This document shows, piece after piece, positions 49,253 through 63,972 of a DNA stretch of 64,000 nt (positions are counted from its first letter, which is position 1; the number at the start of each line of letters is the position of its first letter). The notes under the pieces were generated by a model, which saw only the letters and a program-made list of their open reading frames with translations, was not told where the DNA came from and did no database searches. A program made the position numbers and the translations under genes. Source of the stretch: a virus; IMG/VR virus record IMGVR_UViG_3300031578_000012; one strand, 5' to 3'.

Positions 49253-50410
49253 TTATACCCTCTCCAGTATTTCTGTAGCCAGATCAAATATACGGTTATA
49301 GAAATATTGGGTAGGGACCTTTCTTCCAAATGATTTTTCCAGGGATAGTTCATTGCTATCTTCTGGTGAAATTACTCCCATTTCTTCACCATATTCGCTC
49401 TCTTTATAGATAGCCAAGTTGTAAATATTAAGAGCATACAATTTACTCTTTGATTCATTGATAAAATCAAGAGTATGGATATAGGTGACTATATCCTCTT
49501 CTACAATTCCAATTATCACATTCAGGATAACCTTCAGTCCTTGGTTATGAAGCTTGATCACGGCCGTACGTATCAGCTTCTCACTTGCCGGTTTATGCAG
49601 GGCTTTCAGGATCCTATCATTAAACGATTCTACTCCCATCTCTACTATCCTTACTCCCAGGTCCTGTAGCTCTTCTATGAATCCAGGCTTGTTAAGCTGG
49701 GCTGCTGTAGTCTGAATGATGAACCCTTCAAACTCCGGGTTGTTAGTCCGGACTATATCATACGCTTCCTTCAATATATTATAGTTGGGAGCCTGTCCAA
49801 AGGTAGAATCAGCAACATATACATACTGAAATCTCAGTGACGTAGAAATACGTGTTGCCTGGTATAATATTTCCTCCCTGGTCTTCTCCTGGATCCAGTG
49901 CTGAGTAGTACAGAACTTACACTTATGCTTGCACCCTGTAGATAGAGTGATACGCGGGATAGTGGTTGTATTCTCAAAATGTCTGTAGTTAAGCGCATAT
50001 TTATAAGGTACACCCAGATACTCTGCCAAGGCTTCAGGATTATCGAAATATTTCAAGCCTGGTATTTGAATATATCCCCCAGTCAGGATCTTGGCTTTAC
50101 CTGTGTATTCCCGGACAAACTTTTCGATAAATGATTTGTTCACATCCATTACAGAGAATAGGATATAGTCATAATGATTAATGTTTGTAATTGGCTCGCT
50201 ATTTTCCAGGACCAGGAAATCAGTATTTATATAACCATCCAGAAAGCCATCGATTTCAGCTATCCATAATGGAATCTCCCAAAAATGCGTTCCCTTCTGG
50301 TAGCCTTTTTTAAGCCTGTAAATATCCTCATAATACCTGCTGGCCTTTGTGTCCTGGTAGGGACCATTGATCAGCTTTGAGCTTACTTGTATGTATAGTA
50401 ACTTCTTCAT
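49253..50410 (-). CDS. Radical SAM enzyme with N-terminal ~150-aa alpha/beta domain
   Basis: CX3CX2C motif (C160-KHK-C164-KF-C167) in the context TLSTGCKHKCKFCTTQ. The 385-aa size and Cys position fit B12-binding-type (class B-like) radical SAM architecture. Confidence 0.8.
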   Translation of the reverse strand: MKKLLYIQVSSKLINGPYQDTKASRYYEDIYRLKKGYQKGTHFWEIPLWIAEIDGFLDGYINTDFLVLENSEPITNINHYDYILFSVMDVNKSFIEKFVREYTGKAKILTGGYIQIPGLKYFDNPEALAEYLGVPYKYALNYRHFENTTTIPRITLSTGCKHKCKFCTTQHWIQEKTREEILYQATRISTSLRFQYVYVADSTFGQAPNYNILKEAYDIVRTNNPEFEGFIIQTTAAQLNKPGFIEELQDLGVRIVEMGVESFNDRILKALHKPASEKLIRTAVIKLHNQGLKVILNVIIGIVEEDIVTYIHTLDFINESKSKLYALNIYNLAIYKESEYGEEMGVISPEDSNELSLEKSFGRKVPTQYFYNRIFDLATEILERV

Positions 50411-50736: not shown

Positions 50737-50780
50737 GTACCCCACCAGGATTCGAACCTGGTTAGTACCATACGGGGCTA
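50737..50780 (-). ncRNA. tRNA-like minihelix TL1 (acceptor stem + T-arm, no anticodon arm)
   Basis: RNA: UA[G]CCCCG-UAUGGUACUAA-CCAGG-UUCGAAU-CCUGG-UGGGGUA-C. The 5' UAG is the stop codon of ORF 50778..51074. Confidence 0.7.
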
Positions 50781-51074
50781 GAAGCAAACACTTACATATG
50801 TGGATTTGTCTGTTAAGCTTACTATCATAAGTAAGTCATCCACTTCATCAGGAGCTATACAATCCAGCGTTATTAAATACCTACCAACAGGAGTAAAGAT
50901 AGTAACAGATTCAAATGGATCAAGATAATCTGTGAATACAATGATATTTGTTGATGTCTCTTCTACAGTCACAATACCAGGACAGGCACCATTGGTAACC
51001 GTAATGTACGGCGGATGCATAATCTCACATGATGTGAGCAGAGCAATTGCAAGCAGCAAGAATAGAGTTTTCAT
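50778..51074 (-). CDS. Lipoprotein (98 aa)
   Basis: Signal peptide with lipobox LLTSC. Confidence 0.6.
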   Translation of the reverse strand: MKTLFLLLAIALLTSCEIMHPPYITVTNGACPGIVTVEETSTNIIVFTDYLDPFESVTIFTPVGRYLITLDCIAPDEVDDLLMIVSLTDKSTYVSVCF

Positions 51075-51586
51075 AACGTAGCTTTTTCGTAAACAGTCTC
51101 ACCATTGGAAAATGTAGCTACAACTCTCAAGGGTATGGAATAATCCTTGTAGATCTTCTCCAGCTTAGTAATAAGCTCTTCAGTGACCTGGTTAACCCAG
51201 TTAATGGCCCTGGTGGCCTGCTGGTTATTCAAACCTTCATAATTTAGATCATCCTGGTCCAGGCTGTATACCCAGTCGGATCCTCCTGTAGAGTATTGCA
51301 GAGCCCAATCCAGGTTGCAGCCAGCATAATATCCGCTACGTATGATAGCAGATACTCTAACTTCGATACAGATACCTCCCCAGTATCCATTGGTATTCAG
51401 ACTCCCAAGGACATGTGAAGGAAAGGATCTCAGCTCATGCCGGTCATGTCCTCCATCCTGGTATTCATCCAGCTGAGAGAGCTCGGACTCCAGGTTGTCT
51501 TTCAGATCCTGGTAGTCATAATCGTTCTCCAGCTCACACGCGAACACGCGGCTAGCGTTAACATTATGAAAATTACTTGTACTCAT
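51071..51586 (-). CDS. Hypothetical acidic protein (171 aa)
   Basis: ORF preceded by AGGAGGT (51591-51597). Confidence 0.65.
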   Translation of the reverse strand: MSTSNFHNVNASRVFACELENDYDYQDLKDNLESELSQLDEYQDGGHDRHELRSFPSHVLGSLNTNGYWGGICIEVRVSAIIRSGYYAGCNLDWALQYSTGGSDWVYSLDQDDLNYEGLNNQQATRAINWVNQVTEELITKLEKIYKDYSIPLRVVATFSNGETVYEKATL

Positions 51587-51615
51587 AATTACCTCCTATT
51601 TTTGATTAAACATTT

Positions 51616-51661
51616 GTACCCTGCCTGGAGTCGAACCAGGCCAAATACTATATCAGGGTTA
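51616..51661 (-). ncRNA. tRNA-like minihelix TL2
   Basis: RNA: UA[A]CCCUG-AUAUAGUAUUUGG-CCUGG-UUCGACU-CCAGG-CAGGGUA-C. The 5' UAA is the stop codon of ORF 51659..51907. Confidence 0.7.
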
Positions 51662-51907
51662 AGAAAATATTGACTGGTCCCCGGCCAGTGCTCTCTTCAT
51701 TAAATTAGACTTAGGCAGAACTTGCGTCCGGATCAAGAATTTCACGGTGTCCTTCTTCAAGCAATATTCCTTATGTTTACCTGGTTGCACTTCATAAAAC
51801 CGGATCTGGTTACCGGACCGGCGGATTTCCAGATGTAACCCGGTATATACACCTGCCCGGATCTGCTGCCCGGCTTGGTCTTTGAATTGTACTACAATTG
51901 CGCTCAT
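51659..51907 (-). CDS. Hypothetical protein (82 aa)
   Basis: ORF overlapping the upstream stop. Confidence 0.55.
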   Translation of the reverse strand: MSAIVVQFKDQAGQQIRAGVYTGLHLEIRRSGNQIRFYEVQPGKHKEYCLKKDTVKFLIRTQVLPKSNLMKRALAGDQSIFS

Positions 51908-52281
51908 ACCTTACAGTTAATAAGAGTATCACTATCAATATGATAGATAAAATCCTGCTTCAAAGTTTCACCAAGGAAGATAGCGGAAGATTTGTCCGTA
52001 TGTGATACTGAACATATATCCAGGTAAGTTTTACCCTCATGGATCCAGACTCCCAGGAAGAATCCACTTTGTAACCAGCACTTGTTGTCCTTGGCATACT
52101 CGGCAATAGCAATACTCAAGGTCTCCCAGTCGGTTGTATTCAGAACCCTATCATTTGCTATCCCTCCGATAACATAACCAGAGATGGGAGCCCGGCCAAG
52201 GTTATCTACAGTGCATCCTCCCGTATTCAGGGCTATTCTAGCGATCCGCTTGCTAAAAATTGATTTGAATTTGTTCTTCAT
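51904..52281 (-). CDS. Hypothetical protein (125 aa)
   Basis: ORF with an AGTATT box 24 nt upstream. Confidence 0.6.
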   Translation of the reverse strand: MKNKFKSIFSKRIARIALNTGGCTVDNLGRAPISGYVIGGIANDRVLNTTDWETLSIAIAEYAKDNKCWLQSGFFLGVWIHEGKTYLDICSVSHTDKSSAIFLGETLKQDFIYHIDSDTLINCKV

Positions 52282-52299
52282 GACTTCATAAATTAGATT

Positions 52300-52307
52300 A
52301 ATACTGG
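52300..52307 (-). promoter_or_regulatory. CCAGTATT box, 24 nt upstream of the ATG at 52281
   Basis: Member of the AGTATT motif family. Confidence 0.4.
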
Positions 52308-52309
52308 TA

Positions 52310-52483
52310 CTATCCCCATCCTTGCCCCCAAAGACATACAGCTATAACCGCAAAACATAAGACAGTGATTATTAGTACTTTGACTGCTATTTCAATCCTG
52401 GCTTCCCGCTTGCGTTCGGCCTCCGATTTTTCCCTGGTAACTGCCGGGGTTGGACGGAATGTGAAAACGTTACTGTGACTCAT
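52310..52483 (-). CDS. Small membrane protein (57 aa), not in the ORF track
   Basis: MSHSNVFTFRPTPAVTREKSEAERKREARIEIAVKVLIITVLCFAVIAVCLWGQGWG. It has a TM helix and fills an otherwise empty gap. Confidence 0.45.
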   Translation of the reverse strand: MSHSNVFTFRPTPAVTREKSEAERKREARIEIAVKVLIITVLCFAVIAVCLWGQGWG

Positions 52484-52501
52484 AACTTTAAAATATTAGT
52501 G

Positions 52502-52509
52502 AATACTAG
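52502..52509 (-). promoter_or_regulatory. CTAGTATT box, 24 nt upstream of the ATG at 52483
   Basis: Member of the AGTATT motif family, directly downstream of TL3. Confidence 0.4.
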
Positions 52510-52520
52510 AAATAAATTCG

Positions 52521-52566
52521 TGCCTGGTCCAGGATTTGAACCCGGACCGGATACCATTTCAGGCTA
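52521..52566 (-). ncRNA. tRNA-like minihelix TL3
   Basis: RNA: UA-GCCUGAA-AUGGUAUCCGGU-CCGGG-UUCAAAU-CCUGG-ACCAGGC-A. The 5' UAG is the stop codon of ORF 52564..52887. The acceptor stem has only 5 bp. Confidence 0.6.
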
Positions 52567-52887
52567 GTCAAGGATTGCGCTATACATTGACTGGTTGATC
52601 TTAAGCAATAAATACCTGGCCCGGTCAAATGTCTGGATCGCGCTGCCCCGCGATACGTTATACTTTGCTAGGATTGTTGGGTGGAATTCATTGTAGCTAA
52701 GATCTTGGACAAAATCAACTATTGATTTCTCCAATGGATTTGCATCAAGTGATTCACCTGTAAAGGGATTTCTGACCTGGCTAGTATCTCCGGACTTTTC
52801 AATGGCCTGGATCTGGCTGGCTAGGTACGCAGCGATAAATTTATCATCGGCTGCTGTGATCTTTTCACCGTTACAATACTTTTCCAT
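52564..52887 (-). CDS. Hypothetical protein (107 aa)
   Basis: ORF with an AGTATT box 24 nt upstream. Confidence 0.6.
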   Translation of the reverse strand: MEKYCNGEKITAADDKFIAAYLASQIQAIEKSGDTSQVRNPFTGESLDANPLEKSIVDFVQDLSYNEFHPTILAKYNVSRGSAIQTFDRARYLLLKINQSMYSAILD

Positions 52888-52905
52888 AATTGTAAATTTA
52901 AAATT

Positions 52906-52913
52906 AATACTAA
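52906..52913 (-). promoter_or_regulatory. TTAGTATT box, 24 nt upstream of the ATG at 52887
   Basis: Member of the AGTATT motif family, 4 nt downstream of TL4. Confidence 0.4.
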
Positions 52914-52919
52914 AACTTT

Positions 52920-52965
52920 GTACCCGGGTAAGGATTCGAACCTTACCTGTATACCATACGAGTTA
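52920..52965 (-). ncRNA. tRNA-like minihelix TL4
   Basis: RNA: UA[A]CUCGU-AUGGUAUACAG-GUAAGG-UUCGAAU-CCUUAC-CCGGGUA-C. The 5' UAA is the stop codon of ORF 52963..53193. Confidence 0.65.
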
Positions 52966-53193
52966 TCCAGTATAATTTGCGGCCCAATTATCAAAGGCTG
53001 ATATTATATCCCGGATTTGATTTGCTTCATATGAATAGTCAGATAGGTCAATAAATTTATCCTCCAATTGTCTGACTTCCTTTTGTCCAAAATTTTCATA
53101 TAATCCATGCTTACTGCATTTATCAATAAGTTTGGCCGTAGCTGCATTAATAGCCTTTTGTACTTTAATTAACTTTTCCATTGTATAAAGCAT
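52963..53193 (-). CDS. Hypothetical protein (76 aa; alternative start 53181)
   Basis: ORF between TL5 and TL4. Confidence 0.55.
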   Translation of the reverse strand: MLYTMEKLIKVQKAINAATAKLIDKCSKHGLYENFGQKEVRQLEDKFIDLSDYSYEANQIRDIISAFDNWAANYTG

Positions 53194-53205
53194 TAGTTAA
53201 AAGTC

Positions 53206-53252
53206 GCACCCTGTCCCGGTAACGATCCAGGACTAACACCAATGCAGGGTTA
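53206..53252 (-). ncRNA. tRNA-like minihelix TL5 (divergent T-loop)
   Basis: RNA: UA[A]CCCUG-CAUUGGUGUUAG-UCCUGG-AUCGUUA-CCGGGA-CAGGGUG-C. The 5' UAA is the stop codon of ORF 53250..53486. Confidence 0.6.
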
Positions 53253-53486
53253 TTTCAAAGGTTTGAACGTATCGGAGAACAGTATACAACCTCCATTGGC
53301 TTCAGCCTGTCCAATTAGATTAAAACCCAGCTGCTGCAATGTAATAACGGCCTGTCCCCAATAGTCATTATCTTCAATATTGACTATAATGTGCTGCCTA
53401 AATCTTAGCGAATTAATTGATATCCTGGATGGTTTGGTATCGGTAGGTCTAATAAACCGGATCTGAAATGCATGGTAATTTTTCAT
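53250..53486 (-). CDS. Hypothetical protein (78 aa)
   Basis: The start is trimmed to the ATG at 53486 (MKNYHAFQ). An AGTATT box lies 24 nt upstream. Confidence 0.55.
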   Translation of the reverse strand: MKNYHAFQIRFIRPTDTKPSRISINSLRFRQHIIVNIEDNDYWGQAVITLQQLGFNLIGQAEANGGCILFSDTFKPLK

Positions 53487-54530: not shown

Positions 54531-54703
54531 GCTTTCAGTAGTTTAGTGGCATGTCTGGTAGCACTTTGTATACTAGTAAATTGCTTGTTTGTTCTGAAGT
54601 GTCTCCAGGATAGCTTTGTTCTTTTCACTACGTGAATAGGAACATTTTCATAAGACTCAATTGTAATTGAGCGGTTACCTTTGGTAATAATTGTTGTATT
54701 CAT
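54527..54703 (-). CDS. Hypothetical protein (58 aa), not in the ORF track
   Basis: MNTTIITKGNRSITIESYENVPIHVVKRTKLSWRHFRTNKQFTSIQSATRHATKLLKA. It is the first ORF downstream of TL6. Confidence 0.45.
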   Translation of the reverse strand: MNTTIITKGNRSITIESYENVPIHVVKRTKLSWRHFRTNKQFTSIQSATRHATKLLKA

Positions 54704-54728
54704 TTGATTGTAAGTTAGTTAAACATTG

Positions 54729-54787
54729 TGCCAGTAATGAGATTTGAACTCATGGCCATTATTATTTTTGGCTTCCAGTTAACTGGC
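54729..54787 (-). ncRNA. tRNA-like element TL6 (acceptor stem + T-arm with 27-nt linker)
   Basis: RNA: GCCAGUU-AACUGGAAGCCAAAAAUAAUAAUGGCC-AUGAG-UUCAAAU-CUCAU-UACUGGC-A. It lies at the 5' end of the leftward operon, 25 nt before the ATG at 54703. Confidence 0.55.
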
Positions 54788-55138
54788 AAAAAGAAGAGTA
54801 AGTAAGGACTCTTGCAATTGTCACGGAAAGGGCTGCCCATGCCTGTTACCAGTACCCTTAACCCCCCCTCTATTGCTAGATAAGGAAAGACGTTATATTA
54901 TCCCTATCAATATAGAAAATCCTACGTCTTCCTTGGTCTCCGAACTTCAGATCCATCCGGTTAATTACTCCATATCGCCTTGAAATCCATCTCTCCGGGT
55001 AGGTTTGCGGTCATCCTTACTTACTTATCATGTCAATGTACTCATTTTCAGCGACTTACGAGCTTCTGTGCTGCTCTGCGCGTGTTTCAATGGTATAAAG
55101 GTAATAATACGTTACGACAATGCAAACTTGAGTATCAG

Positions 55139-55217
55139 TCAGTTACAGCGATAAACAGACCAGTTTATTCAACATTCTGCGCGTTTATTACACTATCATT
55201 CAATCAGTTACAGCGAT
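55139..55217 (+). repeat. Direct 14-nt repeat tcagttacagcgat (x2, 65 bp apart)
   Basis: Copies at 55139-55152 and 55204-55217. Confidence 0.85.
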
Positions 55218-55271
55218 CCGGCGTTGCCTGGTGTATGGTCCATAAATATTTTTAAAATAAATAACAGTGTT

Positions 55272-55298
55272 CACGTGTACGTGCGTGTGTATGTGCAT
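55272..55298. repeat. 27-nt perfectly alternating pyrimidine/purine tract
   Basis: cacgtgtacgtgcgtgtgtatgtgcat. Confidence 0.85.
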
Positions 55299-55761
55299 TG
55301 TTCCTTCAAACCAGCGCTACCAGCAACCAGGCGCTACCAGCGGCCTGAGTGTGTATTTACAATACTAGCTATGTGACTACAATTGCACCCTGCGCCACGC
55401 GTGGAAAGAAATAAATAAATTGTGCACCATCAGCACCGGTGCCAGTCACCTACGCTGCCCTGTTCCCTTGGCGCTATAAAACCGTACACCCCTAGCCTAT
55501 TGAATACCAGCGCATTACGAGCGAATGTCTTATATCTTATATTATGTTAAGTAGAGGCTAGTGCGCTGGTGCTCAATTACATAAGTAAAATAGGGGACCC
55601 TATTGCGCTTGGTTCAGATCCAGTTTAGTTTTCTGTCAAACCGACCAGGGGGGTACAGCGCTAAAGGGTCCCATACACACGGAATAACGGGTTTCTGAGG
55701 ATGGGGTAGGGGTTAAGGGTCCCATTGGTATACATAAATAGAAAAATCGGAAATAGGGAGA

Positions 55762-55769
55762 TATTTTTG
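55762..55769 (+). promoter_or_regulatory. TAnnTTTG box (TATTTTTG), rightward
   Basis: Exact match to the motif. It faces the leftward boxes located 17-35 nt away. Confidence 0.35.
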
Positions 55770-55785
55770 TACTGCACTTGTAGTA

Positions 55786-55804
55786 CAAATGTAATACAAA
55801 TGTA
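55786..55804 (-). promoter_or_regulatory. Two tandem leftward TAnnTTTG boxes (TACATTTG x2)
   Basis: The plus strand shows caaatgta at 55786-55793 and 55797-55804. They are candidate promoters for the leftward early operon. Confidence 0.4.
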
Positions 55805-55903
55805 GTACAATTACTTTTTAGGGAACTATAAACCCCAATTTTTAGGGTGTTTGGTTCCTAAAGGGGTATTAAATATAGTCTGACTATATATTTTACGTTA
55901 TAA

Positions 55904-55941
55904 ATAACCATTTTTCACAAAGAATAACCCTTTTTCACAAA
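55904..55941 (+). repeat. Tandem 20-nt repeat ataacc(a/c)tttttcacaaa x2
   Basis: Copies at 55904-55921 and 55924-55941. Confidence 0.85.
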
Positions 55942-56111
55942 ATATGCGAAAAAGGCCGTCTCCACCGCCGGAAGGACCTTATTAGAGGCCCTGAAACCCA
56001 GTTATATGGACTTTTCTGGATATGTTATGCTAATTTAGATACATTCTAAAGTTAAATTCTTAGGTATTTTATAAAACATTTTGTACCTTGCACCAAATTT
56101 AAAGCTGGAAA

Positions 56112-56279
56112 ATGAAAGCCACACATGTTGAAATCAAAAAATCCTGCCGGGAAACACACGGAAAGCTGGGTGCCTTCCTGGAAGCTATAAAATATCTGCA
56201 AAAGCAATATATGTTTTATTTACAGGCAAAACAGAACAAGGATAAAACTATCCGGATAGAAATTCATATCGATGAATGA
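56112..56279 (+). CDS. Hypothetical protein (55 aa), not in the ORF track
   Basis: MKATHVEIKKSCRETHGKLGAFLEAIKYLQKQYMFYLQAKQNKDKTIRIEIHIDE. It is the first ORF of the rightward small-gene block. Confidence 0.4.
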   Translation: MKATHVEIKKSCRETHGKLGAFLEAIKYLQKQYMFYLQAKQNKDKTIRIEIHIDE

Positions 56280-62200: not shown

Positions 62201-62365
62201 TTATTTAATTTCAAAAGTTATGGAAATATCTTCTTTTAATAATGGACACTCATCATGAATCGTTTCATTCCAATACTGTTTAACCACTACTATTCCTTTA
62301 ACAGCTTCACATTTCTCAAAAGTACGTAGTGGGCAATTATAACATCCATTAACCATTATCCTCAT
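62201..62365 (-). CDS. Cys-rich mini-protein (54 aa), not in the ORF track
   Basis: MRIMVNGCYNCPLRTFEKCEAVKG...DECPLL. TAATG overlap with the upstream gene. Confidence 0.4.
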   Translation of the reverse strand: MRIMVNGCYNCPLRTFEKCEAVKGIVVVKQYWNETIHDECPLLKEDISITFEIK

Positions 62366-63078
62366 TAGGCTTCTGATTTTACAGGGTTTGTTTCTGATTC
62401 TGGACTATCCGGAATTTCTGGCATTACTTCTTCCGGAAGCTTTATATCTGTAATCCTTGGCGGTTTCTTACCTTTAATCCGAGCCATTTCCAAAATCATC
62501 CATCTCCAGGCCAGCATTGCATGATGATATACCTGTAAGTATTCATGTTCAATGAGCTTGGGTAAATCTTCTTTTATGTTAATACTTAGATCATTAACAA
62601 ATACATCCAGTTCACTCTCCAGATTATTAACCTGTATTTCATAATCAAACTTTGTAAATTTATTTGGATTGATAACAGCAAGCTTGTTCATTGCAATTTC
62701 TCCGCTATCTAGCAATATGTCTTCAAAGATGTGATTTAAAGTAACATACACTACCTCCAGATTGTTAATAACATTATGTATGTACTGTGAATGTTTTCCC
62801 ATGTCCAAATAGTCAATTTCTTTTTGGACTTCCTGCATAGTTTGACTATAATTGTGAGCATTTTGACACAGGGCTGTATACTCTGGTTGAGATAGAGTTT
62901 TAACAAATTCCTTATCTTTATACTGAGTATGGTATGACTCCAGCTTTTTCATAACAGTTTGGAGGGTCTTTTGGTGATGTAATATCGCTCCTTTGTTATA
63001 GTTAAGAGATTTAACCATATTGGTCACCTGGGCCATTGTATCCCGCATAATCTTTGCAATCTTCGAATCTTGTAGCAT
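62365..63078 (-). CDS. Hypothetical protein (237 aa)
   Basis: The start is trimmed to the ATG at 63078 (MLQDSKIAKIM). The track extension runs through tRNA-like element TL7. Confidence 0.65.
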   Translation of the reverse strand: MLQDSKIAKIMRDTMAQVTNMVKSLNYNKGAILHHQKTLQTVMKKLESYHTQYKDKEFVKTLSQPEYTALCQNAHNYSQTMQEVQKEIDYLDMGKHSQYIHNVINNLEVVYVTLNHIFEDILLDSGEIAMNKLAVINPNKFTKFDYEIQVNNLESELDVFVNDLSINIKEDLPKLIEHEYLQVYHHAMLAWRWMILEMARIKGKKPPRITDIKLPEEVMPEIPDSPESETNPVKSEA

Positions 63079-63097
63079 AGTTTCTGGTTTAAATGAG

Positions 63098-63188
63098 GGC
63101 AGAAGGGGGGATTCGAACCCCCGGGTAGTAATTACTACTCCAGATCCAGTAGGAAAAGCCAGAAACCTACTGGCTATTTTACTTCCGC
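63098..63188 (-). ncRNA. 91-nt tRNA-like element TL7 with G3-U70 acceptor stem and non-canonical core
   Basis: Acceptor GCGGAAG/CUUCUGC (G3-U70), T-arm GGGGG-UUCGAAU-CCCCC and discriminator C. The core forms hairpins GCCAG-UAGGUUU-CUGGC and GUAGU-AAUU-ACUAC, but I find no standard D or anticodon arm. Confidence 0.55.
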
Positions 63189-63338
63189 CTACCATAATAT
63201 CGTCCCCGCCGAAGCGGGGGCCTGACTATGCAGCTACCTTGTGGCTCCATACAGGACTTAATTGAACAACTTTGCCAGTTATTCCTCAGTGATTTCAATT
63301 CGTGTTGTACTCTGCATGCTGTCAAAACATTCAGCCCC
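63189..63338 (-). ncRNA. ssrA: tmRNA coding piece (5' GGGGCUG, P2 5' strand, tag frame, UUCG-capped hairpin); 3' boundary uncertain
   Basis: RNA: GGGGCUGAAUGUUUUGACAGCAUGCAGAG...CUGGCAAAGUUGUUCAAUUAAGUCCUGUAUGGAGCCACAAGGUAGCUGCAUAG-UCAGG-CCCCGC-UUCG-GCGGGG. The candidate tag frame at 63276..63226 ends ...SHKVAA-stop. Confidence 0.75.
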
Positions 63339-63585
63339 GTAAGATACGATCTGGGGGTACGCCCAGGAGAAGCCTACCACGTATGGTAACCCGGCTCCCA
63401 GGACCCCAGATCGCGAGTTCTTACAAGAGGGGAGGAAAATTCTAGTCTAAGCACCTATCATTTACGCTCCTCAACGTATGATTTATGGTACTACTAGAAT
63501 CATCCCTCAAGACCATTGCCGTAAAACACCCCTTGGTCGCAAAAGCGTCCGCAGGGCTTGCGGTTGGATTTTTTATCATAAGTAG
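63339..63585 (-). ncRNA. 247-nt structured intervening segment between the tmRNA acceptor and coding pieces
   Basis: Hairpin 63549-63563 (CCGCA/UGCGG). A long rod at 63428-63511 (AUUCUAGU/ACUAGAAU plus GAGGG/CCCUC). A long rod at 63348-63412 (GAUCUGGGG/CCCCAGAUC, capped by UACCA-UACG-UGGUA). Confidence 0.6.
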
Positions 63586-63650
63586 TGGAGCTGCGGGGCT
63601 TCGAACCCCGGTCCAAACATGCTTTCCTTCACGAATATAACGAAATCAAA
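63586..63650 (-). ncRNA. ssrA: tmRNA acceptor piece (P2 3' strand, GGAC, T-arm, CAGCUCC-A 3' acceptor strand); 5' boundary uncertain
   Basis: RNA: UUUGAUUUCGUUAUAUUCGUGAAGGAAAGCAUGUUUGGAC-CGGGG-UUCGAAG-CCCCG-CAGCUCC-A. It pairs with the GGGGCUG and the three P2 segments of the coding piece downstream. Confidence 0.75.
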
Positions 63651-63670
63651 GAACGTATTTGTTAGAAATA

Positions 63671-63678
63671 TATACTAA
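63671..63678 (-). promoter_or_regulatory. TTAGTATA box upstream of the tmRNA acceptor piece
   Basis: Variant of the AGTATT box, 29 nt upstream of the first P2-pairing nucleotides. Confidence 0.35.
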
Positions 63679-63808: not shown

Positions 63809-63892
63809 ATGCAATGAAAGGATTCGAACCTTTGACCTGAAGCACGTTCTATGCCGCGCGGCAACCGCTCTATCCAACTGAGCTACATTGCA
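63809..63892 (-). tRNA. 84-nt tRNA-like gene with canonical acceptor, D- and T-arms but no recognisable anticodon arm
   Basis: UGCAAUG-UA-GCUC-AGUUGGAUA-GAGC-G-[27 nt GUUGCCGCGCGGCAUAGAACGUGCUUC]-AGGUC-AAAGG-UUCGAAU-CCUUU-CAUUGCA-U. The 27-nt centre does not form a 5-bp/7-nt-loop arm. Confidence 0.5.
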
Positions 63893-63899
63893 TACCTTG

Positions 63900-63972
63900 T
63901 AGCGGGGACAGGAGTCGAACCTGCAGTCGAAAGCTTATGAAGCTCTTGAGTTACCATTACTTCCACCCCGCA
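63900..63972 (-). tRNA. tRNA with anticodon CAU (Met, or Ile2 type), 73 nt, CCA not encoded
   Basis: Acceptor UGCGGGG/CCCCGCU (U1-U72 mismatch), anticodon arm AGAGC-UUCAUAA-GCUUU, variable CGACU and T-arm GCAGG-UUCGACU-CCUGU. The D-stem is weak. Confidence 0.75.

Follow-up and report, generated by a model that had tools for sequence, protein, structure and literature searches.

Candidate tRNA-mimic punctuation elements that share a stop codon with phage early genes

Five tRNA-like elements in an early operon

The window, a 64-kb stretch of phage DNA, carries five tRNA-like elements (TL1 to TL5) on its minus strand, between early genes of the phage. They are oriented in the sense direction within the 65-80 nt gaps of the early operon, where each overlaps the upstream stop codon by 1 nt and ends 14-38 nt before the next ATG. 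The upstream ORFs, all on the minus strand, encode 98 aa with a lipoprotein-like N-terminus (50778..51074, before TL1), 82 aa (51659..51907, before TL2), 107 aa (52564..52887, before TL3), 72-76 aa (52963..53193, before TL4) and 78 aa as called (53250..53486, before TL5), the open frame of the last reaching 53594. All five are also called, with identical stops, by a public gene caller in the public assembly. For the ORF upstream of TL3, the sole homologue beyond the phage's own contigs is P0122 of L619 (68% identity), the one related phage found.

Each element is given here from 5ˊ to 3ˊ, with a slash before position +1. TL1 (50737..50780) reads UA/G-CCCCG, UAUGGUACUAA, the T arm CCAGG-UUCGAAU-CCUGG, UGGGG-U and A73 C74; its stop is the TAG at 50778-50780, and G50778, at +1, forms a G.U pair. 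TL2 (51616..51661) consists of UA/A-CCCUG, AUAUAGUAUUUGG, CCUGG-UUCGACU-CCAGG, CAGGG-U and AC, with a TAA at 51659-51661 whose A51659 (+1) forms an A-U pair. In TL3 (52520..52566), UA/G-CCUG and AAAUGGUAUCC precede an extended T arm (GGUCCGGG-UUCAAAU-CCUGGACC), (C)AGG-C and AC, and G52564 of the TAG at 52564-52566 is the +1 nucleotide of a G-C pair. TL4 (52920..52965) is made up of UA/A-CUCG, UAUGGUAUACA, GGUAAGG-UUCGAAU-CCUUACC, CGGG-U and AC; A52963 of its TAA (52963-52965) lies at +1 in an A-U pair. The most divergent of the five, TL5 (53206..53252), reads UA/A-CCCUG, CAUUGGUGUUAG, UCCUGG-AUCGUUA-CCGGGA, CAGGG-U and GC, and its TAA (53250-53252) likewise supplies A53250 as the +1 partner of an A-U pair.

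Structurally, the acceptor 5ˊ strands (GCCCCG, ACCCUG, GCCUG, ACUCG and ACCCUG in TL1 to TL5) close onto T arms to give tRNA-type coaxial stacks of 11, 11, 12, 12 and 12 bp. The T loops are of the tRNA type UUCRAnU (UUCGAAU, UUCGACU, UUCAAAU and UUCGAAU), with a divergent AUCGUUA in TL5. There is neither a D stem nor an anticodon arm. The acceptor strand and the T arm are only 11-14 nt apart, and an AUGGUA linker takes the place of the D loop. TL1 to TL5 may well be tRNA mimics that correspond to the 'top half' of a tRNA, in which the acceptor stem is stacked on the T arm. Annotation by tRNA finders and Rfam misses these elements: no Rfam family matches them, and a search for a tRNA cloverleaf within them gave zero Rfam matches even at E ≤ 10 and zero ARAGORN calls. 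Single-sequence folding is weakly better than for shuffled sequences (z = −1.0 to −2.0). The minimum-energy fold of TL1 contains both the acceptor stem and the T arm, whereas those predicted for TL2 and TL4 pair the linker GUAU with the 3ˊ GUAC and have no acceptor stem. Within 50.3-56.3 kb, no terminator-like site (a G+C-rich hairpin with a U run) and no promoter-like site (sigma-70-type hexamers, the promoter type that the scan covers) coincides with any TL.

The phage also encodes its own tmRNA, as the earlier note had proposed. The gene is circularly permuted (two-piece; 63226..63644, minus strand) and is supported by an ARAGORN call, by a match to Rfam family RF04321 that falls just short of the gathering score (44.9 bits against 47, E = 2e-7), and by reading of the sequence. 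Its acceptor piece combines a T arm with CAGCUCC-A, the coding piece begins GGGGCUG (giving G3.U70), and the tag, GKVVQLSPVWSHKVAA, has a typical ...VAA ending. Two real tRNA genes (63809..63972, minus strand) have no encoded CCA and carry the trailers U-CAAAGG and A-CAAGG. The TL trailers (A-CAAAU, A-CAAAU, A-CGAAU, A-CAAAG and G-CGACU in TL1 to TL5) match these window tRNA trailers, which are of the type N73-CAA(A/G)G.

A phage class and the register of its shared stop

A covariance model (R1) was derived from 15 elements, all from contigs outside the window. Run over both strands of the 64 kb with filters off, it recovered TL1 to TL5 at full length (positions 1-48): TL1 with 45.3 bits (E = 8.5e-10), TL2 with 32.4 bits (E = 2.8e-6), TL3 with E = 0.0015, TL4 with E = 0.0019 and TL5 with 15.4 bits (E = 0.12). 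The window has no other full-length match, and its real tRNAs match at the T arm alone. The model yields 98 matches at E ≤ 0.01 from 88 sources (87 phage or metagenome loci and the window), with up to eight within 2.7 kb on the densest contig. No full-length match occurs in 100 cellular-genome loci chosen by the same sequence pattern. TL1 to TL5 are members of a widespread class which, in present sampling, appeared solely in phage and metagenome contigs.

The fold is supported by strong covariation. Among 93 distinct elements, 96.2% of cells are paired, compared to 55.4% after shuffling, and the covariation score of 1.006, compared to 0.206, is reached by none of 500 shuffles. In a non-circular test, a closing stem of 5 bp or more is present at 53.5% of sequence-defined sites and at 8.8% when the flanks are permuted. 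Compensatory covariation is also evident between the window elements and their counterparts in L619. Across the class the commonest acceptor and T stack is 12 bp. Class elements are sense to the genes in 62 cases and antisense in 5, and 51 of 91 are followed by an ORF start at a distance of 10-49 nt. Covariation and sense orientation together indicate selection on RNA structure, with which a role in recombination could coexist.

The earlier note had placed the five stop codons correctly, each overlapping the 5ˊ strand of an acceptor-like stem that closes a T-arm element. Its pairing register, with a bulged third nucleotide and with the stop's U and A base-paired to the 3ˊ GUA, is not supported. 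The contiguous helix instead starts at the third stop nucleotide, which forms the first pair with position 72 (G.U in TL1, A-U in TL2, G-C in TL3, and A-U in TL4 and TL5), which leaves the U and A unpaired in the leader, at −2 and −1. The same arrangement is seen in the minimum-energy folds of TL1 and TL5, the two that form the acceptor stem, and the model built without window sequences puts the third stop nucleotide at the start of the acceptor. The first acceptor pair is present in 92 of 93 distinct elements (AU 39, GC 35, UA 13, CG 2, GU 2, UG 1). Of 108 elements, 18 could adopt the bulged register, where 13 ± 3 would be expected (p about 0.08). Because TL3 fits the corrected register through its G-C pair, no element need be left out. 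The conserved 3ˊ GGGU(A/G)C end, which had been attributed to pairing with the stop, is a tRNA-type end consisting of N72, the discriminator and C74, with U72-A73-C74 as the conserved form and a CCA-less trailer shared with the phage's own tRNAs, and it also occurs on class elements whose stop is located elsewhere.

Because each of the five acceptor-like stems physically includes the stop, canonical RNase P cleavage would still destroy it, as had been suggested. In the corrected register such a cut, if made, would separate the stop's third nucleotide from its second, so that the upstream RNA would end in ...UA and not at the last sense codon ahead of the stop. Overlap in five of five elements would occur by chance with a probability of about 0.27^5 = 0.0014 at the class-wide rate, or of about 6e-6 if a stop could lie anywhere 0-10 nt upstream.

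Placement of the third stop nucleotide at +1 (offset 0) is the sharp modal arrangement of the class, a strong preference yet a non-obligatory one. Seventy-one non-window elements lie behind an ORF of 40 codons or more. With +1 set by the model, 19 of these show offset 0, on 12 contigs, compared to three at −1 and two at +1. Without exception, these offset-0 cases are TAA with an A-U pair or TAG with a G-C pair. In the other 52 the stop is not shared in this manner, and offsets from −10 to +7 are tolerated across the class. UAA or UAG occupies positions −2 to +1 in 36 of 93 elements, against a background of 4.1%, and in 17 of these 36 it is not the stop of the long ORF upstream. Of the 93, 65 have A at position −1. 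The excess of offset 0 over −1 (19 to 3) goes beyond compaction alone, so stop sharing may carry an advantage.

L619 shares with the window phage solely the module TL4-gene-TL3. Its TL4 counterpart has the whole UAG buried in the helix; the genes upstream of the two TL4 elements are unrelated, and both have their stop inside the element. In the TL3 counterpart, by contrast, an intact UAA directly abuts the stem and the protein C-terminus is identical to that in the window phage. Since this UAA immediately precedes G+1, it would survive cleavage. Conservation of the embedded stop among relatives, by which the earlier note proposed to judge its idea, thus holds for TL4 and fails for TL3 and for the 52 class elements with an unshared stop. 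TL3 of the window, with its overlapping stop, and the abutting arrangement in L619 constitute a natural control pair.

Candidate functions of the elements

We favor a model in which the TLs are tRNA-mimic punctuation elements with their own UAR at the 5ˊ edge, and assign it a probability of about one half. It is their resemblance to tRNA, namely minihelix geometry, an elbow mimic and the N73-C74 trailer, that suggests processing. By analogy, host tRNA-maturation enzymes would recognize the elements: RNase P would act at −1/+1, and RNase Z, or an enzyme equivalent to it, behind the discriminator. They would punctuate the polycistronic early RNA in the way that mitochondrial transcripts are punctuated by tRNAs and those of plant mitochondria by t-elements. 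Because the class characteristically has A at −1 and a purine at +1, this U-A-purine edge is presumably part of the element and would serve as the stop for whichever ORF sits upstream. Stop sharing would then arise from compaction and from the joining of gene cassettes at the elements, and not as a non-stop device. In favor of punctuation we count the specificity of the covariance model, the covariation, the sense orientation, the offset-0 peak, the UAA or UAG at −2 to +1 even where the long upstream ORF stops elsewhere, the module shared with L619 despite unrelated genes upstream of TL4, the CCA-less tRNA trailers and the lack of coincident terminators or promoters. The weak single-sequence folding, the alternative folds of TL2 and TL4, the excess at offset 0 and the A at −1 count against it, as E. 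coli RNase P prefers U at −1. A bolder extension, which we consider a long shot, is that host RNase P clips the shared stop and the ...UA ends are either A-repaired to UAA or left non-stop, such that output tracks ribosome rescue. If so, early-protein output would depend on the ribosome-rescue state, through host or phage tmRNA, and the sharp class-wide peak of stops ending at +1 would be a footprint of RNase P clipping.

The earlier note had envisaged programmed non-stop messages, in which RNase P removes part of the stop and tmRNA, possibly the phage's own, rescues and tags the five early proteins. The overlap of the stop with +1 in all five TLs, the strong over-representation of offset 0 in the class, and the presence of a real phage tmRNA with a typical ...VAA tag ending are all compatible with this scheme, and the E. 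coli arfA mRNA provides a precedent (PMC10107115). However, a conserved and required loss of the stop, as in arfA, is not what is found: the TL3 counterpart in L619 retains its UAA, offset 0 is the minority state, and two class elements carry tandem in-frame TAA-TAA, of which one stop would outlast the cut. Moreover, among the other phage loci fetched, 20 have an ARAGORN tmRNA call; TL-like elements are absent from 17 of these and never exceed two in the rest, which amounts to no association in this sample. Tagging its own early proteins for destruction would also be costly to the phage, and no signal here supports it. Such a scheme therefore appears very improbable. The idea that the elements stay attached, with one or neither side cut, is unlikely but better matched to the offset tolerance of −10 to +7, which is easiest to accept with the stop uncut. 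Here a TL would form a structured cap, either on the 3ˊ end of the upstream mRNA with its stop intact or on the 5ˊ end of the downstream one, and a terminating ribosome would have to unwind the acceptor stem, linking termination with refolding and with the accessibility of the following start. The constant succession of stop, element, about 25 nt and start is in keeping with this, a ribosome paused at an offset-0 stop would, from its known footprint, cover the entire 7-nt 5ˊ strand, and in TL2 and TL4 the acceptor stem has a competitor, the pairing of the linker with the 3ˊ end (GUAU/GUAC). GUAC complementarity is not general in the class, however, and a plain hairpin would suffice as a cap; the conserved T loop, the D-loop-like GG, the 12-bp stack and the N73-C74 tail point instead to tRNA-binding enzymes.

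Two further explanations shift the function away from the mRNA. Released mini-tRNAs might themselves be the product, soaking up, as decoys or sponges, proteins with affinity for the tRNA elbow or the acceptor end, such as SmpB, tRNA-targeting defence toxins, or modification or CCA-adding enzymes, with the intercistronic site being merely convenient for expression. The architecture is that of the tmRNA tRNA-like domain minus the mRNA part, a 'TLD only' tmRNA remnant in DS6A serves as a phage precedent (PMC4131195), and the elements are multi-copy in the early-gene region. Nevertheless, we judge this improbable: the fixed spacing to both flanking genes and the shared stop would be left unexplained, the alanine identity pair G3.U70 is absent from all five TLs (TL4 has U3.G70 instead), and the TL linker is unlike the D-loop analogue found in the phage tmRNA. 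The least credible option is that the elements are DNA-level joints, either 45-nt repeats that promote cassette exchange or decaying tRNA genes without RNA function. It draws on the shared TL4-gene-TL3 module of L619, whose neighbouring genes are unrelated to those in the window, and on two flanking genes whose homologues occur elsewhere without any TL-like elements. It conflicts with the strict sense orientation and with strong compensatory covariation in both stems across the 93 distinct copies and the L619 counterparts.

Relation to known tRNA-shaped and phage processing signals

Processing signals shaped like tRNA are textbook in mitochondria; plant organelles and a few transcripts of eukaryotes also have them. 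No phage counterpart was found in the literature searched. In the mitochondrial punctuation model of Ojala, Montoya and Attardi, tRNA-shaped elements directly flank the coding regions of a polycistronic RNA, as TLs do, and a coding region can enter the element so that excision leaves a truncated stop, comparable to the ...UA that cleavage at TLs would give and that many animal mitochondrial mRNAs have. There, UA is completed to UAA by A-tailing, a step that is hypothetical for TLs. TLs differ in being non-decoding mini-elements that lack an anticodon arm, and in that their stop is encoded in full and simply shared.

The mascRNA-type tRNA-like elements, which are processed from longer transcripts, are of the same kind as the t-elements of plant mitochondria. 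The latter resemble TLs in being tRNA-like structures other than tRNAs within long transcripts, at which RNase P and RNase Z make the 3ˊ and 5ˊ ends of mRNAs (PMC1920247). Unlike TLs, both kinds are eukaryotic or organellar and present in single or few copies per genome, and in the literature consulted no sharing of a stop codon is reported for them. The tRNA-like domain of tmRNA also joins an acceptor stem to a T arm through a D-loop analogue without an anticodon arm, and has phage-encoded examples. These include the 'TLD only' remnant of mycobacteriophage DS6A, a type of molecule that inhibits tmRNA, perhaps by SmpB titration (PMC4131195). TLs differ by their lack of G3.U70, their other linker, and their multi-copy intercistronic location in mRNAs as opposed to a stand-alone gene.

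The stop codon of arfA is removed by an endonuclease, through an RNase III cut within a hairpin. This E. coli mRNA has no stop codon and is repressed by trans-translation (PMC10107115). In contrast to the TLs, this is one dedicated regulatory gene in which stop loss is conserved. The shared stop raises the question of whether a bacterial-type system tolerates, repairs or exploits mRNAs with a stop clipped by RNase P.

In the early operon of phage T7, RNase III sites between genes give rise to mono- or oligocistronic mRNAs with protective terminal structures. TLs are similarly structured elements between phage early genes and putative targets of a host RNase. They differ from the T7 sites, which are long irregular hairpins that usually do not overlap a stop, in being tRNA mimics and in the enzyme that would be involved. 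If TLs are cut by tRNA-maturation enzymes, they would represent a general route by which phages split early operons using essential host enzymes, and thus the RNase P/Z counterpart of the T7 RNase III sites.

Small tRNA-like elements at the junctions of early genes

The minus-strand genes that span ~47.5-54.7 kb of the window include five intergenic gaps of 65-80 nt, each of which carries one tRNA-like element: TL1 (50737..50780), TL2 (51616..51661), TL3 (52520..52566), TL4 (52920..52965) and TL5 (53206..53252). Read on the minus strand, all five elements share a common layout that begins with a stop codon at the 5' edge. This codon is followed by a C-rich strand of 5-6 nt, a linker of 11-14 nt that includes AUGGUA (AUAGUA in TL2 and AUUGGU in TL5), a 5-bp stem with a 7-nt loop (UUCGAAU, UUCGACU or UUCAAAU, and AUCGUUA in TL5), and finally a complementary G-rich strand that runs into U/C, A/G and C. 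The five stop codons are located where the earlier note placed them and close ORFs of 98, 82, 107, 76 and 78 codons; a public gene caller yields the same five ORFs with the same ends. The start codon of the next gene lies 14-38 nt beyond the element in all five cases.

These elements are not tRNAs. Neither a D stem nor an anticodon arm would fit into the available space, and the five sites are matched neither by ARAGORN nor by any tRNA or RNA family in Rfam, even at E <= 10. A role as terminator or promoter was rejected, as none of the candidate sites of either kind in the scanned region falls on a TL. A separate terminator-like hairpin (ACUGGCC...GACCAGU followed by CAAUAUUUUC; 51689-51673, minus strand) is present in the last codons of the ORF at 51659-51907, ~10 nt before the stop codon of TL2. 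Most such hairpins in the scanned region occur in a stretch of ~1.4 kb that lacks a convincing ORF (54703-56112), which separates two divergent early gene blocks.

Single-sequence thermodynamics provides weak support for the TL fold. In TL2 (51616-51661) and TL4 (52920-52965), the GUAU of the linker is complementary to the 3' GUAC, and RNAfold favours a longer hairpin over the acceptor stem. This predicted GUAU/GUAC pairing suggests a possible alternative conformation for these two elements.

Searches of Pfam and PHROGs with the proteins flanking the TLs return no functions, and no CCA-adding enzyme, poly(A) polymerase or RNase family is detected among the ORFs tested. Two genes downstream of TL1, the early operon also encodes a radical SAM protein (49253-50410, minus strand; PF04055, E = 4.8e-16).

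A class of elements with covarying stems

Pattern scans of DNA from viral and metagenome contigs reveal many elements of the same build whose stem sequences are quite different. Because MAFFT misaligned the acceptor strands when elements of mixed geometry were combined (alignments A1-A3), we built the covariance model R1 from 15 elements of a single geometry (alignment A4), all from contigs other than the window. R1 recovers TL1 to TL5 with E-values of 8.5e-10, 2.8e-6, 0.0015, 0.0019 and 0.12, respectively, and finds no further full-length match in the 64-kb window. In total, it produces 98 matches with E <= 0.01, spread over 88 sources (87 phage or metagenome loci and the window) with several per contig, and no full-length match in 100 cellular-genome loci picked by the same sequence pattern.

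Both stems covary strongly. Pairing is observed in 96.2% of stem cells, whereas shuffles give 55.4%; cells with changes on both sides number 455, compared to 115 in shuffles. Furthermore, among 142 sites chosen without selection on pairing (defined solely by AUGGUA and a T arm, with ARAGORN tRNAs excluded), 53.5% have a closing stem of 5 bp or more, whereas permuted flanks do so in 8.8% of cases (maximum 14.8%). The elements are mostly oriented in the sense of the flanking coding sequence (62 sense, 5 antisense), and a downstream ORF begins 10-49 nt away in 51 of 91 elements. The densest example found is a 2.7-kb metagenome contig (Ga0307432_1018319), which carries eight elements, approximately one per small ORF, five of them with the stop codon ending on the first stem nucleotide. 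We found no description of such elements in the literature, and Rfam scans of the TL region at permissive thresholds return no family. The observation of the earlier note is confirmed with a different register (see below), and it extends to a class for which no description was found in the literature or in Rfam.

Register of the stop codon and the 3' end

The earlier note proposed that the U and A of each stop codon pair with a 3' ...GUA sequence and that the third stop nucleotide is bulged. A contiguous helix is simpler, and five lines of evidence favour an arrangement in which the third stop nucleotide is paired as the first of the helix (position +1). The first pair is then G.U in TL1, A-U in TL2, G-C in TL3, and A-U in TL4 and TL5. 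In the predicted minimum-energy folds that include the acceptor stem (TL1 and TL5 only), the third stop nucleotide is paired while the U and A are single-stranded. With the corrected pair, the acceptor and T stems form stacks of 11, 11, 12, 12 and 12 bp in TL1 to TL5, and the mode for the class is 12 bp, which is the length of the acceptor/T stack of tRNA. In the R1 alignment, the first acceptor position is taken by the third stop nucleotide, with the U and A in two leader positions and the terminal A-C in two trailer positions. This first pair is formed in 92 of 93 distinct elements (39 AU, 35 GC, 13 UA, 2 CG, 2 GU and 1 UG), with the caveat that their alignment was fitted to the model. The bulged register is feasible in 18 of 108 elements compared to the 13 +/- 3 expected by permutation.

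The contiguous register also changes the reading of the conserved GGGU(A/G)C sequence, which had been attributed to pairing with the stop codon. It instead corresponds to N72 (the partner of +1), discriminator 73 and C74, and is tRNA-like on its own, such that stop pairing need not be invoked to account for it. The two real tRNAs of the window lack an encoded CCA and have the trailers U-CAAAGG and A-CAAGG. The same trailer is present in TL1 to TL4 (A-CAAAU, A-CAAAU, A-CGAAU and A-CAAAG). An initial scan of viral sequences for the T loop together with GGGTACAAA matched almost exclusively full-length tRNA genes and was set aside as a search tool; its one use was as evidence that this 3' end is of tRNA type.

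Stop sharing among unrelated phages

To count stop positions, we took the +1 nucleotide from the model and considered only elements preceded by an ORF of 40 codons or more whose end lies within -60 to +9; 71 non-window elements qualify. In 19 of these 71, distributed over 12 contigs, the third stop nucleotide is +1 itself (offset 0), with TAA forming A-U in 15 and TAG forming G-C in 4. Offset -1 occurs in three elements and offset +1 in two, and every other offset accounts for at most five. The arrangement described in the earlier note is therefore favoured across unrelated phages. Even at the class rate, five of five in the window is extreme (0.27^5 ~ 0.0014). The stop lies elsewhere in 52 of the 71 elements, mostly 1-15 nt upstream, and stop sharing is favoured, yet not obligatory. 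Two elements have a tandem in-frame TAA-TAA, such that one stop is outside the element.

UAA or UAG occupies positions -2 to +1 in 36 of 93 elements compared to a background of 4.1%, and in 17 of these 36 it does not serve as the stop codon of the long ORF upstream. A is found at position -1 in 65 of the 93, and G in just five. Given these biases, U-A-purine seems to belong to the 5' border of the element itself. A comparison with the stop offsets of full-length tRNAs was rejected as evidence for processing because tRNAs begin with G, and sharing is possible for them only via the rare TAG.

Only one phage contig, L619, was found to carry counterpart elements at matching positions. Its protein P0122 is 68% identical to that encoded upstream of TL3, and DNA similarity is confined to the segment TL4-gene-TL3 (L619 9547-10007, window 52959-52511), with unrelated neighbouring genes. 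At the TL3 counterpart, the protein C-terminus is identical (...SAILD), and L619 has UAA followed by G+1 where the G of the window's UAG is itself +1; this one-nucleotide difference shifts the stop outside the stem. The TL4 counterpart follows an unrelated gene, and its entire UAG can pair (UAGCCUG with CAGGCUA); R1 assigns +1 to the stop's A. In a third L619 element, UAG precedes GGUAUA, and the G of the stop is wobble-paired or just beyond the stem. Close relatives thus embed 0, 1 or 2-3 stop nucleotides, and such variation had been named in the earlier note as evidence against its proposal. On the sequence level, this comparison shows that different upstream genes use a stop provided at the edge of the element. 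Only TL4-gene-TL3 is common to both phages, and the elements may mark or promote the exchange of cassettes, a role like the one put forward for promoter-early stem-loops in T4-type phages.

Other routes to relatives were less productive. When the window region and four TL-rich loci were compared by BLAST with GenBank phages, nothing matched, and neither a cultured relative nor an annotation is available. A 243-aa neighbour protein led to no relatives among viral contigs. A 171-aa protein encoded just downstream of TL2 (51071-51586, minus strand) belongs to no Pfam or PHROG family. It has 291 homologues, of which the 120 listed show 40-50% identity. Where their contexts were inspected, these homologues occur in unrelated phages, mobile elements and contigs with integrase genes, all without TLs. 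Likewise, no TLs were found beside homologues of the 76-aa ORF, and contigs nearly identical to this phage carry exactly the same TLs and are hence uninformative.

The phage tmRNA is real, as the earlier note had recognized. Within the cluster of tRNAs at 63-64 kb, ARAGORN calls a two-piece tmRNA of the circularly permuted type (63226-63644, minus strand; ARAGORN span 63135-63677), with an acceptor piece (T arm plus CAGCUCC-A), a coding piece that opens with GGGGCUG to create G3.U70, and a readable tag (GKVVQLSPVWSHKVAA, ending ...KVAA). The Rfam model for permuted tmRNA scores 44.9 bits (E = 2e-7), and a default scan misses the gene because this score is 2 bits below the gathering score. A tRNA gene (63809-63892, minus strand; Rfam 47.5 bits) has 17 nt in place of the 7-nt anticodon loop and an anticodon unnamed by ARAGORN, and may contain an insertion, a small intron or an unusual decoding loop. 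In addition, a 92-nt tRNA-like sequence (63097-63188, minus strand; ARAGORN tRNA-Glu(UUC), Rfam 25.3 bits with a gathering score of 29) contains the perfect T arm GGGGG-UUCGAAU-CCCCC. This sequence shares nucleotides with the ARAGORN tmRNA span as well as with the start of the ORF at 62365-63195, and the start of this ORF is therefore probably mis-set.

The earlier note suggested that RNase P cleavage at the stop codon could create programmed non-stop messages that would be handled by this tmRNA. Comparison gives this proposal no support. Among 20 other fetched phage loci with ARAGORN tmRNA calls, 17 have no TL-like element and none has more than two; these loci are short and the evidence is weak, and TLs and tmRNA show no link beyond their presence in one genome. 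Moreover, the canonical cut would fall between stop nucleotides 2 and 3, leaving ...UA rather than the last sense codon.

Bacterial RNase P, RNase Z and CCA-adding enzyme are known to accept minihelices made of an acceptor stem and a T arm. We infer that these enzymes act on TLs, which are most likely mimics of the tRNA 'top half' recognised by host tRNA-maturation enzymes; their processing would split the early operon into pieces of 1-3 genes. We attribute stop sharing to the UAR edge that the element itself brings, to tight packing of the genome, and to the joining of gene cassettes at elements. These three causes do not explain why offset 0 outnumbers offset -1 so strongly (19 versus 3), which keeps a functional reading alive. 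Deliberate non-stop messages are one such possibility, and termination might also be coupled to unfolding of the stem. Alternatively, a clipped stop codon could possibly be mended by addition of A residues, as occurs in mitochondria. It is also conceivable that released mini-tRNAs are themselves the product and might act as decoys. In this regard, a 'TLD only' element is listed for mycobacteriophage DS6A, and such molecules inhibit tmRNA (PMC4131195).
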